Below the pieces are notes generated by a model. That model was not told where the DNA came from. It saw only the letters and a program-made list of their open reading frames with translations, and did not search any database. This document shows positions 42,661-64,000 of a DNA stretch of 64,000 bases, one piece after another (within the stretch, counting starts at the first letter, position 1; every line of letters starts with the position of its first letter). Made by a program: the position numbers and the translations under genes. Origin of the DNA: an uncultured Methylomirabilota bacterium (GTDB lineage Bacteria > Methylomirabilota > Methylomirabilia > Methylomirabilales > 2-02-FULL-66-22); contig CAWJSJ010000006.1 of assembly GCA_963845565.1 (NCBI GenBank), positions 1 to 64,000 of the forward strand. The letters are read 5' to 3'.

Positions 42661-43374
42661 TCAACCGCCCAAATAGGCCCTCTTCACTTCGGGGGCGGCG
42701 GCCAACTCTGCGGCGGAGCCGCAGAGCGTGATGCTGCCCGTCTCCAAGACGTAACCCCGTGTGGCCACGGAGAGAGCCATGCGGGCGTTTTGTTCCACCA
42801 GAAGGATGGTGGCCCCCTGTCGGTGCAGGTCGCGAATCGTCTGGAAGGTCTGCTCGACCAGCGTGGGCATCAGGCCGAGAGACACCTCGTCCAGTAGGAG
42901 CAACTGGGGCCGGCTGACCAGGGACCGGGCGATGGCGAGCATCTGCTGTTCACCGCCGGAGAGTGTCTTTCCCCGCTGGCGCGAACGCTCGCGAAGGCGC
43001 GGAAAGAGCGTGTAGGCGCTCTCCAGTGCCGCGGAGACCTCGCCGGCGCTCGAGAGGACGTACGCCCCTAGGCGCAGGTTCTCTTCCACGGTCAGGTCGG
43101 GGAGGATGCGCCGCCCTTCGGGAACCAGACTGATCCCGCGGCGGGCCCGAGCGTGCGGGGCCTCGGACGTGATGTCGGCGCCATCGAACAGGATCCGCCC
43201 TCCGCGCGGCCGCTGGAGACCCATCACGGCGCGCAGCGTGGTACTCTTGCCCGCGCCGTTCGCCCCGATGATGGTGACCAGGTCACCGCGGTGCACCTCG
43301 AAGCTCACGCCACGCACGGCCGCGAATTCGCCGTACGTTACCTCGAGGTTTCGGACTTCCAACAGCACTGTCAT
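42661..43374 (-). CDS. livF: Branched-chain amino acid-type ABC ATPase
   Basis: GANGAGKST, VPEGRRI, LSGGEQQML. Confidence 0.93.
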   Translation of the reverse strand: MTVLLEVRNLEVTYGEFAAVRGVSFEVHRGDLVTIIGANGAGKSTTLRAVMGLQRPRGGRILFDGADITSEAPHARARRGISLVPEGRRILPDLTVEENLRLGAYVLSSAGEVSAALESAYTLFPRLRERSRQRGKTLSGGEQQMLAIARSLVSRPQLLLLDEVSLGLMPTLVEQTFQTIRDLHRQGATILLVEQNARMALSVATRGYVLETGSITLCGSAAELAAAPEVKRAYLGG

Positions 43375-43456
43375 TGGTCGACTCGTCGAGAAGTCAATTC
43401 GTGAGTACGGTTGGTCCGTGGCCAAATCGACCATTCGACCAATCGACTAATTGACT
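43374..43456. repeat. Inverted array of 8-bp units
   Basis: TTGGTCGA/CTCGTCGA/GAAGTCAA ... TCGACCAT/TCGACCAA/TCGACTAA/TTGACT. Confidence 0.75.
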
Positions 43457-44196
43457 GTCTTCCCAAGGTACGCCTCGATGACCTCTGGATTCCGCTGGAT
43501 CGCGGCGGGATCGCCTGCGGCGATCTTGACGCCGTGGTCCAGAACCACCAGGCGATGGCAGACGTCCATCACCATGGGCATGTTGTGCTCAATCAGGATG
43601 ACGCTGACGCCTTCCCGGTTCAGGGTGCGGATCAGTTCGAGGAGCTGTTGGGACTCCTCGTGGCGAAGACCGCCCGACGGTTCGTCGAGCAGGAGAAGCT
43701 TGGGTTTCAGGGCCAGGGCGCGCGCGATCTCCAGGCGTTTCTTCAGGCCAAGCGGCAGCGTGCCGGCCAAGCGGTCGTGCCCGGCCGCGAGCCCCACCCG
43801 TGTCAGCAGAGCGGCGGCCGCCTGGCGATTGGCCGAGGTGGCGTAGACCATGGCGGAGCTTCGCAGCGCGGGATACGCCTGATGGCCAATGGCCACCAGG
43901 ACGTTGTCTGTGAGCGACAGCGTGGGGAAGGGGCGAACGATCTGGAAGGTGCGGCCGATTCCGCGGCGCGCAATCTCGAAGGGGCGCTTCCCCTGGATGG
44001 CCTCTCCACGGTACCGGATGACACCGCGGCTCGGGTGGATCATGCCGGTGATGCAATTGAACAGCGTGGTCTTGCCCGCGCCGTTCGGCCCGATGACGCC
44101 GAGGATCTCCCGCTCCTCGACGGCGAAGGCCACGTCCTGGAGGGCGGTTACGCCGTCGAATTCCTTCGTGAGAGAGTCAATCTCGAGAAGCACCAC
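43447..44196 (-). CDS. livG: Branched-chain amino acid-type ABC ATPase
   Basis: GPNGAGKTT, GRTFQ, LLLDEP, VIEAYLG. Confidence 0.93.
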   Translation of the reverse strand: MVLLEIDSLTKEFDGVTALQDVAFAVEEREILGVIGPNGAGKTTLFNCITGMIHPSRGVIRYRGEAIQGKRPFEIARRGIGRTFQIVRPFPTLSLTDNVLVAIGHQAYPALRSSAMVYATSANRQAAAALLTRVGLAAGHDRLAGTLPLGLKKRLEIARALALKPKLLLLDEPSGGLRHEESQQLLELIRTLNREGVSVILIEHNMPMVMDVCHRLVVLDHGVKIAAGDPAAIQRNPEVIEAYLGKTVN

Positions 44197-44215
44197 GGCG
44201 AAAACTCCGCAGGCT

Positions 44216-44315
44216 AACCACAGATTTCACGGATTTCACAGAGGAAGCAGACCCCTTCCCGATAGACCCAGGATCCGAACCAGAAGAATCTGTGTAATCT
44301 GCGTAATCGGTGGTT
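44216..44315. repeat. Solo 9-bp-unit palindromic element
   Basis: AACCACAGATTTCACGGATTTCACAGA ... ATCTGTGTAATCTGCGTAATCGGTGGTT. Confidence 0.88.
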
Positions 44316-44356
44316 CCAACGTGTCTTACCCGATTGTCGGTCGTGCATTTGTCAGG

Positions 44357-45232
44357 CTACGGTATACCGAGCGCCATCCCGCGCACGAGGAGGCTCTGGT
44401 CCCCGAGGATCCCGTCCGGCTGGAAACGCATCAGCAAGAGCAGGAGGATTCCGTACAGGAGCGTGCGGTACTCCATGGCCGGCCGGGAGATCTCCGGCAG
44501 CGCGCCCAGGATGATCGCCCCCACGATGGGTCCCCGGAGCGTGCCGATGCCCCCGAACACGACCATCGAGAGAATGACCATGGACTGGGCGAAGCCGAAA
44601 TTGACCGGCATGATGAATGTCAGAAAATGGGCGTATAGACTGCCGGCCAGCCCCGCCCCGGCGCTCCCCAATGTGAAGGCCAGGACCTTGAAGCGAACCA
44701 CGTCGATCCCCATGGCGCCGGCCGCCTGCTCGTCTTCGCGAATCGCCGCCCAAGCCAGGCCGATCCACGATCGCGTGAGCCAGCGATCGGCGGCGATCGT
44801 CACCAGAATCACGACGCACACCAGGATGAGGAATCCCGACTTGCCGATCTCCGCGCCAAAAACGCTGGGCGGTTCGATTCCACCGATCCCCATACCGGCG
44901 CCGAAGAAGGGGATGTACAGGAAGACCGCCTCGATCACGAAGTTGATGCCCATCGTGGTGATGGCCAGGAAATCCTCGCGGACACGGAGGCAGGGGATCG
45001 CCAGGATCGCTCCCACCAGGCCGGCCATGAGACCGGCGATAAGAAAGGACGGCCAGAAACTGAACCCCGCCTTGGTGAAGAGGAGGGCGGACGTGTACGC
45101 CCCGATCCCCATGAACGCGGCATGGCCCAGCGAGATCTGACCCGCGTAGCCCGTGATGATGTTCAGGCTGAGGGCCAGAATGATATAGATCCCGATGGTG
45201 ATCAGGACCGTGATCGTGTATCCGCTCAACAC
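44357..45232 (-). CDS. livM: Branched-chain amino acid-type ABC permease
   Basis: GYAGQISLGHAAF, AIREDE.AA.AMGI, GGIGTLRG. Confidence 0.92.
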   Translation of the reverse strand: MLSGYTITVLITIGIYIILALSLNIITGYAGQISLGHAAFMGIGAYTSALLFTKAGFSFWPSFLIAGLMAGLVGAILAIPCLRVREDFLAITTMGINFVIEAVFLYIPFFGAGMGIGGIEPPSVFGAEIGKSGFLILVCVVILVTIAADRWLTRSWIGLAWAAIREDEQAAGAMGIDVVRFKVLAFTLGSAGAGLAGSLYAHFLTFIMPVNFGFAQSMVILSMVVFGGIGTLRGPIVGAIILGALPEISRPAMEYRTLLYGILLLLLMRFQPDGILGDQSLLVRGMALGIP

Positions 45233-45252
45233 CTGAGAAGACCCCTTGGGTT

Positions 45253-45398
45253 AACCACAGATTGCACAGATGACACAGATAGCACAGATGCAGCCCCGGG
45301 GTCCGATACCGGGGAAATCTGTGTAATCTGTGGTTTCACGTAACACCGGAAGAATACCCCGTGGGCAACCACAGATTTCACAGATTACACAGATGGGT
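45253..45398. repeat. 9-bp-unit palindrome, 31-bp spacer and a further left arm (downstream flank of the GxxExxY gene)
   Basis: AACCACAGATTGCACAGATGACACAGAT...ATCTGTGTAATCTGTGGTT; spacer 45336-45366; AACCACAGATTTCACAGATTACACAGAT. Confidence 0.9.
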
Positions 45399-45768
45399 CA
45401 TGGCCGGACACAAACCTCCTGTGCTGAAGCGAAGGCGCCCCGAAGTTGAGGAGGAGGGCAATGCGTAGGCCTGATGCCTTCAGGTAATTGAGAACCTGAG
45501 CCTCGTCAACGACGGTTAATTGCCGGATAGCTTTCAGTTCCAGGATTACCGAATCAAAACATATGAAGTCCGCACGGTAGGTAGGGGAGAGCTTCTCTCC
45601 CTTATAAAAAACGGGAATCTCACTCTGCGCGCGAAACGGAACGTTGCGCAAGCCAAGTTCCTTGGCCAGGGCGTCCTGGTACACCGCCTCAAGAAAACCC
45701 GGACCGAGTATCCGGTGAACTTCCAACGCCGCCCCGATTATCGCGTGCGTCCTAGCATCCCTTTCCAC
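45385..45768 (-). CDS. GxxExxY family protein (putative PD-(D/E)XK nuclease), 127 aa
   Basis: IIGAALEVH..LGPGFLEAVY, RADF, ILELKA, QVLNYL, LLLNFG; GTG 45768 with GGGAG RBS (longest ORF extends to 45834). Confidence 0.92.
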   Translation of the reverse strand: MERDARTHAIIGAALEVHRILGPGFLEAVYQDALAKELGLRNVPFRAQSEIPVFYKGEKLSPTYRADFICFDSVILELKAIRQLTVVDEAQVLNYLKASGLRIALLLNFGAPSLQHRRFVSGHDPSV

Positions 45769-45792
45769 GTCGGCTCCCGATTCAACTAGGGT

Positions 45793-45995
45793 AACCACAG
45801 ATTGCACAGATGGGTTAGGACCCGGATCCTGCATTAATCTGTGTAATCTGCGTAATCTGTGGTTTCACGTAACACCGGAAGAATACCCCGTGGGCAACCA
45901 CAGATTGCACAGATTCCACAGATTCCACAGATGGCACAGATTTGGCCCCGGGTCCGAACACAGAGAAATCTGTGTAATCTGTGAAATCTGTGGTT
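45793..45995. repeat. Two tandem 9-bp-unit palindromes separated by the same 31-bp spacer (upstream flank of the GxxExxY gene)
   Basis: Elements 45793-45864 and 45896-45995; spacer 45865-45895 identical to 45336-45366. Confidence 0.9.
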
Positions 45996-46002
45996 TCGCG
46001 CC

Positions 46003-46860
46003 TCAGCCTTTTCCTAGCAGCCCGTGGGGGCGGAACATCAGGACCAGGATCATGGCCACGAACGCCAGGGCATCGCGCGGGAACGGGATGGCCACCACCC
46101 CGATCAGGAGCGTCTCTGCCAGTCCGATAAGGAACGAGGCCAGGACGCTTCCCGGGATGTTTCCCAGGCCGCCGAGGACGACGATTGCAAGACACTTGTA
46201 TGCGGGGATGCTGCCCATCGTCGGCCACACCTGATTATCGTAGACGCCGATGAGGACGCCCGCCGCACCGGCCAGGGCGGAGCCGATGACGAAGTTCAAG
46301 GTGACTACCAGCCGGGTGTTCACGCCGAACGTCGAGGTGGTGTCGGCATCCATGGCGGTGGCCCGCATGCTGAGGCCGACGGCGGAGCGGGACAAAAGAA
46401 GCCAGAGGAGTCCGAGCAATCCCAGCGTCACAGTGAAGATCAGGCTCTGTGGAGAGCTCAGACGGAGCGGCCCGGCGCTCAAGGCGGGGAAATGGATCTC
46501 GGCATCGTAGGCCAGGGCATAGGGTCCTGCGACGATGCGGAATGCCTCCTCCATGGCGATGAAAAGCCCAATGCTTCCGATGAGCGGCACGATCCGCGGC
46601 AGATGGAGGAGCGGAGCGTAGAGGAACCGCTCCACCAGGACCCCGACCACGGCGCACACGGCCATGGCTACGGCCAGGCTCAGCCAGAAGTTCCCGAGGA
46701 GCCGGAATGCGACGACACCCGAGTAGGCGCCCAGGGCATAGATGCCCGCGTGGGCCACGTGGAGCACGCGCAGCACGCCGTACACCATGGTGAGGCCCAG
46801 TGTGGTGAGGGCGTACACGGCGCCGGTGGCAATTCCATTGGCGATCTGCTGCCAAATCAT
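46003..46860 (-). CDS. livH: Branched-chain amino acid-type ABC permease
   Basis: QQIANGIATGAVYAL..LGLTMVYG, VLGGLGNIPG, FRPHGLLG. Confidence 0.93.
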   Translation of the reverse strand: MIWQQIANGIATGAVYALTTLGLTMVYGVLRVLHVAHAGIYALGAYSGVVAFRLLGNFWLSLAVAMAVCAVVGVLVERFLYAPLLHLPRIVPLIGSIGLFIAMEEAFRIVAGPYALAYDAEIHFPALSAGPLRLSSPQSLIFTVTLGLLGLLWLLLSRSAVGLSMRATAMDADTTSTFGVNTRLVVTLNFVIGSALAGAAGVLIGVYDNQVWPTMGSIPAYKCLAIVVLGGLGNIPGSVLASFLIGLAETLLIGVVAIPFPRDALAFVAMILVLMFRPHGLLGKG

Positions 46861-46863
46861 GCG

Positions 46864-46937
46864 GAGAGCCTAGAATCGAGAGCCGAGAACGGCGAGCCAC
46901 GAGCCACGAGCCGCGACTGACCGCTGACCGCTGTCGC
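46864..46937. repeat. Degenerate 7-bp tandem array
   Basis: GAGAGCC..GAGAGCC GAGAACG GCGAGCC ACGAGCC ACGAGCC then CTGACCG CTGACCG. Confidence 0.65.
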
Positions 46938-48101
46938 CTATTGTGCGGGCGTGATGACCTCGGGATTGTCCACCACGCCGTGGCGGCGGAACTTGCCGTT
47001 CTTCACGATCTGGAACTGGACGGGCTTCACGACCTCGCCCTTGACGAACTTGCTGATCTTGCCGGTGAGTCCGTTGTAATCCTTCGTCTCCAGCAGGGCC
47101 TTGATGACGTCCTGGCGATTCACGGAGCCGGCGCGGCCGACGGCGTTCACCAGGATCATGAAGGCATCATAGCTCGACGCGCCCACCATGTCGGGGTCGA
47201 TGTTGTAGGCTTGCTTATAGTTCTTCAGGTAGTTCTGCACCACCGGGCGGGGGTCGTCGCGGTCCAGATTGGTGGCGATGATCACCCCTTCCGCGGTCCC
47301 CTTGGCCAGCTCGATGAACTTGGGCGAGTCGAACCCCTCCTCTGCGAGGATCGGGGTCGTGATGCCGAGCTCCTTAGCCTGCAAGGTCATCAGAGCGGCC
47401 ACGTCATAGTACCCCGCAGCGAAGATGAGGTCTGGCTTGGCCTCCTTGATCCGTGTCAGGAACGGGCGGAAGTCCTTCTCGCCGGGGTACTTGTACACTT
47501 GCTGGAGCAGGACCTTGGCTCCGAGTTTCTCGGCTCGCTTGGCGAAGCCCGCCGAGATCTCGCGTCCGAAGTCGTTGTCCATGTTGAGGATGGCGGGGTT
47601 CTTGCTCTTCAAGACCTTGACGGCGTACTCGCCGGCCGCACCACCTTCGACTTCGCCGAGGAACCCGTTCCGGAAGTTGGAGTCGCTGCCCTTGGTCACG
47701 TCCGGGTGGACGGCATAGCCGGCGACCATGGGGACGCGCGCCTTGGAAAAGATCGGGGCGGTCACGCGGGTCGGACCGCTGTAGGAGCCACTGACCACGC
47801 CCACGACCTGGTCCCTCTCGATCAGTTTGTTGGCGATGGCCACGGCCTCTTGCGGGTTCAGCCGATCGTCGTACACGATCAGCTCGACCTTCTTGCCCAT
47901 GAACCCGCCCGCCGCGTTGACCTCCTTGACGGCCAGCTCGACCGACTGCTTCGCACTCGCACCGTCGGCGGCGACCGGTCCGGTGATGGGCGCGAAGAAG
48001 CCGATCTTGATTGTCTCTTGGGCGGTCGCCGGAACGACGAGATAGGTCGCCAACACGGCGACGGCGAGCAGCAGGGGCATAGCCGTTCGCATGTACTTCA
48101 T
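46938..48101 (-). CDS. livK: LivK/LivJ-type ABC substrate-binding protein
   Basis: Signal peptide, IKIGFFAPITG, EVNAAGG.MGKKVEL..YDD, YDAFMIL. Confidence 0.88.
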   Translation of the reverse strand: MKYMRTAMPLLLAVAVLATYLVVPATAQETIKIGFFAPITGPVAADGASAKQSVELAVKEVNAAGGFMGKKVELIVYDDRLNPQEAVAIANKLIERDQVVGVVSGSYSGPTRVTAPIFSKARVPMVAGYAVHPDVTKGSDSNFRNGFLGEVEGGAAGEYAVKVLKSKNPAILNMDNDFGREISAGFAKRAEKLGAKVLLQQVYKYPGEKDFRPFLTRIKEAKPDLIFAAGYYDVAALMTLQAKELGITTPILAEEGFDSPKFIELAKGTAEGVIIATNLDRDDPRPVVQNYLKNYKQAYNIDPDMVGASSYDAFMILVNAVGRAGSVNRQDVIKALLETKDYNGLTGKISKFVKGEVVKPVQFQIVKNGKFRRHGVVDNPEVITPAQ

Positions 48102-62202: not shown

Positions 62203-62782
62203 GGCCTTCATCATCGGCAGTAGCGGGCACGCACGCGTCGTCGCGTCGATGCTCGACGTGGAACCGCAGTTCGTGGACCCCGATCGTGCGAGCGAGGACC
62301 GCGTCCTCGCTGAACTGGTCGCGGATCACGGCGGTGCGGACTTCTACCTCGGCATCGGGATCAATGCGGGTCGCCGGCGCGTGGCCGAGAAGCTGCGGGC
62401 GCTTGGCGCGCGACTGCCGCCGTGCGTGGCGCCGAACGCGTTCGTCGCCCGGGACGCCCAAGTCGCAGACGGGGCGGTGCTCTGTCTGGGCAGCCAGATC
62501 GGCTCGGGTGCGCACATCGGCTTCGCCTGCATCGTGAACACGCTGTCGAGCGTGGACCACGACTGCGTGCTCGGCGACTACACGCAGGTGACCGCGGGCG
62601 TGAACTTCGGCGGCTGGGTTGCCGTCGGGTCGAACGGCTTCTTCGGCATGAAGAGCGCGGTGATCCCGAAGTGCACCATCGGCGACGACGTCGTCGTGAT
62701 GGCGGGCGCGCTGGTGACACGCGACGTCCCCGACCGCGTCATGGTCGGCGGCAGCCCGGCGCGCATCGTCCGGCGCCTCTGA
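62195..62782 (+). CDS. NeuD/PglD-family sugar acetyltransferase
   Basis: IIGSSGHARVV, LGIG, VNTLSSVDHDC, hexapeptide repeats, GGSPAR. Confidence 0.88.
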   Translation: MGKAFIIGSSGHARVVASMLDVEPQFVDPDRASEDRVLAELVADHGGADFYLGIGINAGRRRVAEKLRALGARLPPCVAPNAFVARDAQVADGAVLCLGSQIGSGAHIGFACIVNTLSSVDHDCVLGDYTQVTAGVNFGGWVAVGSNGFFGMKSAVIPKCTIGDDVVVMAGALVTRDVPDRVMVGGSPARIVRRL

Positions 62783-62826
62783 GTCGGCGTCACGCTGGCT
62801 CCGCCAGTTGGGGGGACCGAAGGGAG

Positions 62827-64000
62827 TCAGCGGCAGGATTGTTCGAATATCCGCAGAGGTGCAATCGTATCCTGCATGGGCAACCCTTCTCTGGTTGCTC
62901 CCCAACTCACTAACAGATTTGCAAAAAATCGGCTCGCCTCGATAACCGGCTGGGTACGCGCCGCGCGAAGAGCGAAATCCACCAACCTATCCGCGTAGAG
63001 TCGAGGGCTGAAGGTCGCCGCTGCCCATTGGGCCGCCCGTTCGCCCAACGCCGACCGCTCAGCCGGGTTGTGCAGGAGGAATACCAGCGTTTTTTGCAGA
63101 TCGCTGATTTCCTGGTTGGGCGCCACCTTGCACACGCAATCGTCCGGAAGCTCGCGATAGAACCCCGTGTCGGTTACGACCACGGCTTTGCCACAGAGCA
63201 TCGCCTCGATGGTCGATGCCGACGCGGCTTCCAGCGGTGGAAACCGTAGACAGCACACCACATCGGCGCGATCAATGGCGTGCGCCAACGTGGCATCGTC
63301 CACCTCACCGGAAATCAGCAACCGCACACCCAAACTGTGCGCCAGGGCGGAAAGGCGGGCTTGGGCATCCGACTCGATGTGACCGACGAGCCGCAGGATG
63401 GCCGTGTTCTGCAACTGCGGAGAAGTTCCGATGGCGCGGAGGATGCTGTCGACCCGCTTGTTGGCGTTGATTCGCCCGATGGTCAGGACAAGCATGGCGT
63501 CGCGCGCGGCTGAACTGTCAACCGGCACCGAGGCAGAACCAGATCCGGTCGCCGGACTGGCCGTGGGTTTGTCGTACGCAAGTGGAATAACCTCCACCGG
63601 GCCGGGGCACGAGCGCAAGACCCGCTGGATATCCCAACTCGAGTGGGTGATGACCCCCGTCGCCATCGCAGCGACCCATTCCGTCATGGGAGCCTTCTCT
63701 CGCGTTCCCTCGATGTAATCCGCCGGGTTGTCGTAGGCAAAATAGGACGCAGCGACCTCCTCGCCATAGCACGATTGCAGGATCGCTTGCGCCACCGTCC
63801 AGCGCGCTCCCGCCCACCCCCTGAAGAGATCACCGAGGAAATAGTCGTGCAGGCACACGATACCGGGAAGCGAGGGGAGCCACTCCAGGCAACCGCGATG
63901 GAAGGGAAAGTTGCCCCCGATCTGGTACACGATGGCGTCGGCATCCCGCGCGACACGAAACACCCCGTCGGTATCGTCCCAGCGCACCATCCTGGTTCCG
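62827..64000 (-). CDS. GT4 glycosyltransferase (5' end may lie outside the window)
   Basis: LHD, THS, IGRINANKR, LRFP..EAASASTIEAM..GK.VVVTD. Confidence 0.85.
   Translation of the reverse strand, partial: GTRMVRWDDTDGVFRVARDADAIVYQIGGNFPFHRGCLEWLPSLPGIVCLHDYFLGDLFRGWAGARWTVAQAILQSCYGEEVAASYFAYDNPADYIEGTREKAPMTEWVAAMATGVITHSSWDIQRVLRSCPGPVEVIPLAYDKPTASPATGSGSASVPVDSSAARDAMLVLTIGRINANKRVDSILRAIGTSPQLQNTAILRLVGHIESDAQARLSALAHSLGVRLLISGEVDDATLAHAIDRADVVCCLRFPPLEAASASTIEAMLCGKAVVVTDTGFYRELPDDCVCKVAPNQEISDLQKTLVFLLHNPAERSALGERAAQWAAATFSPRLYADRLVDFALRAARTQPVIEASRFFANLLVSWGATREGLPMQDTIAPLRIFEQSCR

Follow-up and report, generated by a model that had tools for sequence, protein, structure and literature searches.

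A GxxExxY putative-nuclease gene bracketed by inverted word arrays in a bacterial liv operon, and its resemblance to ORF-bearing 23S rRNA IVS

REP sequences are single short imperfect palindromes with a conserved head motif that occur in many near-identical copies, and the RAYT that goes with them is a Y1/HUH tyrosine transposase; REP-type repeats also serve as mRNA punctuation. A different association of a small gene with inverted repeats is represented by the 23S rRNA IVS of Coxiella burnetii and Leptospira, which bear an ORF, and in Coxiella the 28-bp terminal stem is cut by RNase III in vitro (PMC4990558). Inverted pairs of the heptamer GGGAATC have in turn been described in Xanthomonas, with no linked gene in the accessible text of that study (PMC4692102). 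The protein family considered here was covered by a 2012 survey of the PD-(D/E)XK superfamily, where the function of PF13366 is listed as 'Unknown' and multiple transfers are noted (PMC3424549). In the literature outside subscription journals, we found no description of a link between such a gene and hairpins. A preliminary description of the present locus had proposed a REP/RAYT-like mobile or recombinational system, in which the nuclease recognises periodic hairpins and spreads its gene as well as gene-less copies into intergenic gaps. Here, we compare the locus with its relatives and with the systems above.

Architecture of the livH-livM gap

The window, a 64,000-nt stretch (positions 1-64000 of contig C6), belongs to a genome of 5.36 Mb with 66% G+C in 6 contigs, hereafter G000. 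A liv-type ABC transporter operon occupies the minus strand at 42661-48101, with genes for the binding protein (46938-48101), a livH-type branched-chain amino-acid ABC permease (46003-46860; PF02653, E 2.3e-37), a livM-type permease (44357-45232; PF02653, E 1.6e-47) and two ATPases (43447-44196 and 42661-43434), all on the minus strand. The gap between livH and livM, the upstream and downstream host genes, measures 770 nt and contains, in plus-strand order, hairpin P1, spacer S, a solo arm of three units, the GxxExxY gene, hairpin P2, an identical copy of S and hairpin P3. The gene has the orientation of livH and livM. Checked coordinates and profile matches confirmed what had been observed initially, namely that a 127-aa GxxExxY gene splits the co-oriented livH-livM pair and is surrounded by three full palindromes and one extra left arm.

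The gene (45385-45768, minus strand) starts with GTG at 45768 and has its stop codon in the downstream arm. It matches PF13366 (E 1e-39, 136 bits, cut-off 22) and TIGR04256 GxxExxY (E 1e-41, 141.8 bits, cut-off 35). A longer ORF, starting with ATG and extending up to 45834, reads through an arm and was set aside as probably not real. As the preliminary description had it, the stop lies within a repeat unit; positions 45385-45387 overlap one unit and its spacer.

Folding of the three complete hairpins was computed as single-stranded DNA. P1 (45253-45335) comprises four units, a loop and two units (z = -7.4), and is missing in the nearest relative, G009. It is followed by the first copy of the 31-nt spacer S (45336-45366) and by the solo left arm (45367-45394), three CACAGATnn units that overlap the stop codon and form the downstream (3') arm of the cassette in gene orientation. 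On the other side of the gene, P2 (45793-45864) holds two units, a loop and three units (z = -5.6), its right arm being the upstream (5') arm of the cassette in gene orientation. The second copy of S (45865-45895) is identical to the first and leads to P3 (45896-45995), with five units, a loop and three units (-25 kcal/mol, z = -6.0). The form AAC-(CACAGATnn)n ... (nnATCTGTG)n-GTT with a variable number of units, noted at the outset, holds for P1, P2 and P3; the window's own arrays and those of the flanks that were read by eye open with AACC or something close to it and finish with GGTT. In addition, a degenerate gene-less hairpin of the same CACAGATnn family is located in the livM-livG gap (44216-44315; z = -3.1).

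The CACAGATnn pattern in the window is far beyond chance: two successive units with at most one mismatch occur 17 times, versus 0 in 100 shuffles. Genome-wide, successive CACAGAT words on the same strand and less than 40 nt apart are spaced by 9 nt (27 pairs) or 18 nt (8 pairs) only. Spacer S is present twice at the locus and nowhere else in the genome, and a direct repeat is therefore formed by the sequence running from right arm through spacer to left arm. Considering this duplicated R-S-L junction, the mutual resemblance of the loops of P1, P2 and P3, and the lack of P1 and P3 in G009, the three hairpins look like local tandem duplicates rather than separate insertions. In contigs from two metagenome runs, each belonging to a different study, the left arm of P3 at 45908 is short of exactly one 9-nt unit; thus, the unit number is polymorphic in natural populations.

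The protein carries the GxxExxY motif and the D...ExK triad (D67, E77 and K79), and the residues G24, E27, Y30, D67, E77, K79, Q91 and Y95 are invariant in 22 aligned sequences. Its AlphaFold model (pLDDT 91) displays a generic restriction-endonuclease-like fold, with Cas4 SSO0001 as the best Foldseek match (E 5e-4), and the BpuSI nuclease domain (Z 8.1), Cas4 (7.8) and Hjc (6.2) as the best matches in VIA-align; a sequence search of solved structures returned none reaching E 0.01. The structure searches hence yield only generic PD-(D/E)XK matches that point to no substrate. Because of the invariant residues and the restriction-endonuclease-like model, the 127-aa protein is probably an active nuclease. 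The intact copies of G000 and G009, which are orthologous, are under strong purifying selection, with a dN/dS of 0.06 (5 non-synonymous and 23 synonymous changes) vs 0.13 for livM.

Gene and arrays across genomes

G000 has two PF13366 genes and two 9-nt word families, and each gene sits with one family: the window gene with CACAGATnn arrays, and the second gene (C5:118567-118905) between inverted CACAAGAnn arrays. With two paralogues and two words, the genome represents a natural specificity control. At the level of the order, 30 PF13366 loci out of 41 genomes were assembled, and periodic arrays of 8-10 nt adjoin the gene in 28 of them (19 from an automatic three-unit scan and 9 more from reading the flanks); the two misses are a locus at a contig start (L024) and a fragment (L049). 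None of our claims depends on G028, an unpublished genome. The repeat word follows the protein clade, with CRCAGAT at 9 nt (100/99 support), CGCCAAG (97/93 support) and, in further clades, CGCAGAG at 8 nt, CGCARAG at 9 nt, CACAGATGAA at 10 nt and CACAAGA at 9 nt. As related sequences share labels, this agreement could arise from co-inheritance alone.

A wider set of 80 loci from the CAGAT protein clade only, gathered with an 8-sequence alignment of that clade, covers about 12 phylum-level groups as judged by record title; 79 loci were scored, one being left out as its flank was too short. An inverted match between the 250-nt flanks with a score of at least 14 was detected for 53 of the 79 GxxExxY genes, as opposed to 3 of the 304 control ORFs that these loci provided. 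Likewise, at least two CRCAGAT words upstream combined with at least two ATCTGYG words downstream were found at 53/79 genes vs 1/304 control ORFs. The association of gene and arms is not chance, and the comparison with control genes that had been suggested in the preliminary description returned a strong excess of bracketing arrays. Its view of gene and arrays as one unit is supported by this enrichment and by the word tracking the protein clade; the gene is inherited and transferred along with its arms.

A separate observation concerns the protein P0054, which its source names as coming from a Baltobacteraceae MAG. It is identical to the GxxExxY protein of the same-genus relative G008 (L033), reflecting either a cross-phylum transfer in the very recent past or faulty binning.

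In our judgement, there is about an even chance that the locus is an insertable cassette of the 23S rRNA IVS design, with a nuclease gene that is placed between inverted word arrays and acts on its own arms. The cassette would combine a small PD-(D/E)XK gene, catalytically intact as far as its residues tell, with inverted arrays of a 7-nt word (CRCAGAT) at a 9-nt pitch. The protein would bind the words arrayed in its own arms, in DNA or RNA form, and nuclease activity at the arms would promote recombination or gene conversion at existing hairpins, through which cassettes may be gained, lost or replaced in intergenic slots. Transcription would be achieved by read-through from the host operon, so that the arms would also pair in mRNA. 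Gene-less hairpins would then be relics or derivatives of cassettes, able to persist and to change their unit number by slippage with no need for the gene. We treat the recognition of the arms by the putative nuclease as inferred. For PF13366/GxxExxY, a very large family (at least 7981 homologues at E <= 0.001 with 8000 candidates scored), the bracketing provides a concrete candidate substrate, the protein's own word array, and should the protein prove to read a code of tandem words, it would represent a compact programmable recognition system.

The placement of the arms also bears on an alternative, where they act mainly in RNA: a stem in the host-operon transcript would be cut by RNase III, as in the 23S rRNA IVS, freeing the cassette mRNA and making the insertion tolerable, while the protein, perhaps an RNase or an autoregulator that binds RNA, would have no part in DNA mobility. 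At the cross-phylum loci, the median distance between the end of the upstream arm and the start codon is 21 nt. The downstream arm begins ahead of the last position of the stop, by 20 nt at the median; thus, the ORF reads into the arm. The little room left for an own promoter and the stop codon inside the arm are congruent with a function in RNA, as is a bias towards co-orientation with the upstream neighbour (56/72 cassettes vs 89/146 control pairs, p = 0.015, from crude ORF calls). An RNA fold of the whole gap moreover pairs distant arms around the gene, the Coxiella stem offers a precedent for RNase III cleavage in vitro (PMC4990558), and genes of PF05635, the IVS cargo family, are packaged alike here (see below). 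A stem, however, needs complementarity only, which leaves both the conservation of the word over phyla and the fixed pitch unexplained, together with the arrival of cassettes at new DNA sites; contigs of one RNA library over the gene (~95% identity) show neither transcription nor processing. We consider it unlikely that the arms act mainly in RNA, a reading that is compatible with the cassette proposed above and not exclusive of it.

Turnover at the liv gap and gene-less hairpins

The livH-livM gap was compared in 14 same-genus genomes, G000 among them. The gene with its arms, in the layout L-gene-L-loop-R, occupies the gap in G000, G009 and G004 (3/14); in the G004 copy, a single inserted nucleotide shifts the reading frame and breaks the GxxExxY region. 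Gene-less CRCAGAT hairpins are present in G001, G005, G011 and G017 (4/14), and hairpins of other periodic words in 7/14 genomes, namely GACAGC/GATAGC in G003, G006, G008, G010 and G016 (G003 also with a GCCGAGA x4 array), GCTCATG in G002 and CAATGAC in G018. On a livH+livM tree of 13 of the 14 genomes, these states are scattered. G011, with a CRCAGAT hairpin, and G003, with other words, are sisters separated by ~0.04 changes per site; as they differ in gap state, turnover is fast relative to the flanking genes.

Among the relatives searched, 15 cassettes of the CAGAT clade are located at no fewer than 9 distinct loci, so the cassette resides at different loci in related genomes, and the gene, found at the liv site in 3/14 only, is without a fixed syntenic position. 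The preliminary description had looked to relatives for empty livH-livM sites: the gene is indeed absent from the gap in 11 of the 14 genomes of the set, but no empty livH-livM gap was found among them. Other sites vary as well. At the orthologous site A6, the hairpin type has been replaced, with a CACAGAT hairpin present in G000 as opposed to a CGCCAAG array in G009, and the gap orthologous to G000:C5:50181 is hairpin-free in G011, while G018 (L148, C70) displays a CACAAGA hairpin nested in a CGCCAAG loop. A clean pair of empty and filled sites was not found, and intergenic DNA is unalignable beyond the nearest relative. No excision joints were recovered from metagenome contigs over the gene; apparent joints across it were rejected as excision products, as they carry loops of other genomic hairpins, such as C2:1268165.

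A further locus distinguishes G003 from G011, the liv genes of which are ~4% diverged. Between G003:C231:9774-11765 (L185, L044) and G011:C236 and C71 (L043, L179), the flanks are 91-96% identical and the cassette genes 73%, and G003 has, between two direct CRCAGAT arrays, a membrane-protein gene of ~1.5 kb that G011 is without. Cassette replacement and array-mediated deletion may explain this, and so may MAG chimerism.

The gene-less hairpins have only their ~27-nt arms in common, the loops being locus-unique in a blastn-short search of the genome. When seven of them were compared between G000 and G009, 4 were conserved in place, 1 partly, and 2 differed. At four gene-less sites, the arm cores diverged at 13/119 positions and the flanks at 92/711 (p = 0.66), and this small test of 119 core positions detected no extra constraint on the cores. 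CRCAGAT array hits amount to 27 in G015 and 33 in G018, both with no PF13366 match found, and to 36 in G002, where the only PF13366 match is of the CGCCAAG type; since the genomes are 93-96% complete, a PF13366 gene may have been missed in each of the three. Two identities for these hairpins were considered and dismissed. As remnants of deleted genes, the loops fail to convince, the recurring arm-adjacent motif being equally a decayed unit, and the copies of a MITE, which carry target-site duplications, would share internal sequence along with terminal inverted repeats, whereas loops and spacer are unique.

These data weigh on the strict form of the REP/RAYT-like proposal, according to which the nuclease copies gene-less hairpins and its own gene to new intergenic sites. 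Inverted repeat copies do flank the gene, as REPs flank a RAYT, one cognate gene in the genome is set against about 17 sites with a hairpin or an arm, and the gene is patchily distributed among relatives. However, the copies have no loop or spacer sequence in common, most are orthologous between species and not recent, they number tens and not hundreds, and arrays are still present in genomes that yielded no such gene. To our knowledge, moreover, hydrolytic PD-(D/E)XK enzymes cannot rejoin DNA on their own. The strict proposal is thus highly improbable. From the preliminary description, the gene-plus-arms unit and its turnover can be retained, but the data speak against an active, REP/RAYT-style spread of gene-less copies, given that the arms alone are shared, that 4/7 hairpins are orthologous in place and that arrays persist where no PF13366 gene was found.

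Periodic arms extend well past the two word families of the nuclease genes. Of 324 hairpins in G000 with arms of at least 18 nt, 48 have periodic arms of 7, 8 or 9 nt, representing ~10 word families, and most of these have no gene in the loop. The ~10 further families built on tandem 7- or 8-nt words include TCAGCGn, CGATTGn, AACCGAC, GCCGAGA, GTTCGxCG and GGCAAxTG, among others; examples of such hairpins are C2:1383056, C5:594326 and C5:949360. We also observed two dispersed repeats that are unrelated to the word hairpins and have dozens of copies each in relatives, one of ~107 nt (G000:C5 ~62771-62878; L132 16772-16878; >30 copies at 92-97% identity in G009) and one of ~170 nt (G000:C5 ~63494-63667; L132 17495-17667).

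It may accordingly be asked if hairpins with periodic arms form an intergenic repeat class in their own right, comparable to cyanobacterial STRR heptamers, the Xanthomonas GGGAATC pairs or REP-type mRNA punctuation, with small genes lodging in tolerant loops and the protein inactive on the arms. The predominance of gene-less examples among the 48 periodic hairpins fits this alternative, as do the persistence of arrays in genomes that yielded no GxxExxY gene, the unique loop at each locus, the equal rates of arm and flank evolution, the presence of some periodic hairpin in the liv gap of every relative, and the paired heptamers of Xanthomonas, published with no linked gene in the accessible text (PMC4692102). 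On the other hand, CRCAGAT accompanies one protein clade over ~12 phyla, with proteins diverged to 52-72% identity, and other clades carry other words; passive lodging would keep neither word and protein matched nor the arms within ~20 nt of both ORF ends. We assign this alternative a low probability.

The sole PF05635 gene of G000 (C5:671199-671426), encoding a 23S rRNA IVS protein of the four-helix-bundle type, is bracketed by inverted ~7-nt TCGAAAT-like arrays (L131 about 1340-1385 and 1790-1850). We collected 31 PF05635 loci from the relatives and G000, of which 30 were scored; inverted arrays, mostly of 7-8-nt words, bracket the gene in 22/30, vs 1/36 control ORFs. Several of the PF05635 words, such as TCAGCGG, CGAGCCG and GTTCGGCG, occur as words of gene-less hairpins in G000 too. 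Because this unrelated family is packaged alike, the nuclease is not the general mobilising enzyme of the architecture; a packaging common to two unrelated small proteins argues against it as a general engine. The parallel with REP/RAYT is further weakened by this second cargo using the same architecture and by the nuclease not being a Y1/HUH transposase.

Relation to described systems

In a broader and rather doubtful extension, the GxxExxY cassettes would make up a so far undescribed class of autonomous mobile elements in prokaryotes: the nuclease would read and cut its own word arms, and other periodic hairpins would then receive the cassette by host recombination, as a copy or by exchange. 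A sister class would be formed by the four-helix-bundle cassettes, and together the two would explain much of the unexplained excess of 7-10-nt intergenic tandem repeats. The bracket brings the ORF-bearing rRNA IVS together with the bacterial excess of heptamer-type repeats under one architecture; for annotation, such operon-internal hairpins are neither terminators nor assembly artefacts.

With REP/REPIN and RAYT, the cassette has in common that inverted, palindrome-forming repeats flank a gene and that gene-less copies are found in intergenic gaps, operons included. A flanking inverted dispersed repeat, as in a REPtron, is thus present, whereas a Y1/HUH gene and a single palindrome in many near-identical copies are not. 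The enzyme is of the PD-(D/E)XK fold, with no Pfam match of the ORF other than PF13366, the arms consist of tandem 9-nt units instead of single REP palindromes, the copies are counted in tens instead of hundreds, and gene-less hairpins of the cassette type share only their arms. Cas4, RecB-type and restriction-endonuclease-fold nucleases exhibit the same fold and the D...ExK active-site motif. The likeness to these enzymes is however at the level of the fold only (best Foldseek E 5e-4, best Z 8.1); the cassette protein has 127 aa and no Fe-S cluster domain, and the cassette is without a CRISPR or restriction context.

The heptamer repeats, cyanobacterial STRR and Xanthomonas GGGAATC, resemble the arrays as tandem 7-9-nt intergenic words that often form convergent pairs able to adopt a stem-loop. 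In the Xanthomonas work, related species mostly agree in the type and position of a repeat and differ in its unit number (PMC4692102), in line with the arrays here. Unlike the present word families, which bracket specific small genes, those repeats are tied to no gene in the accessible portions of the reports.

The comparison overall points to the ORF-bearing rRNA IVS as the closest described relative. In both, terminal inverted repeats form a long stem that encloses a small ORF in its loop, the insertion resides inside a transcription unit, and the distribution is sporadic, which for the IVS suggests horizontal transfer (PMC4990558). The IVS cargo family itself, PF05635, is packaged between periodic arms in G000 and its relatives. 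The two differ in cargo, a PD-(D/E)XK GxxExxY nuclease here as opposed to a four-helix bundle, and in site, between the protein-coding livH and livM instead of in helix 25 or 45 of 23S rRNA. Finally, unlike anything mentioned in the accessible part of the IVS report, the arms of the cassette are arrays of a short word at a fixed pitch, with a word that co-varies with the protein clade.
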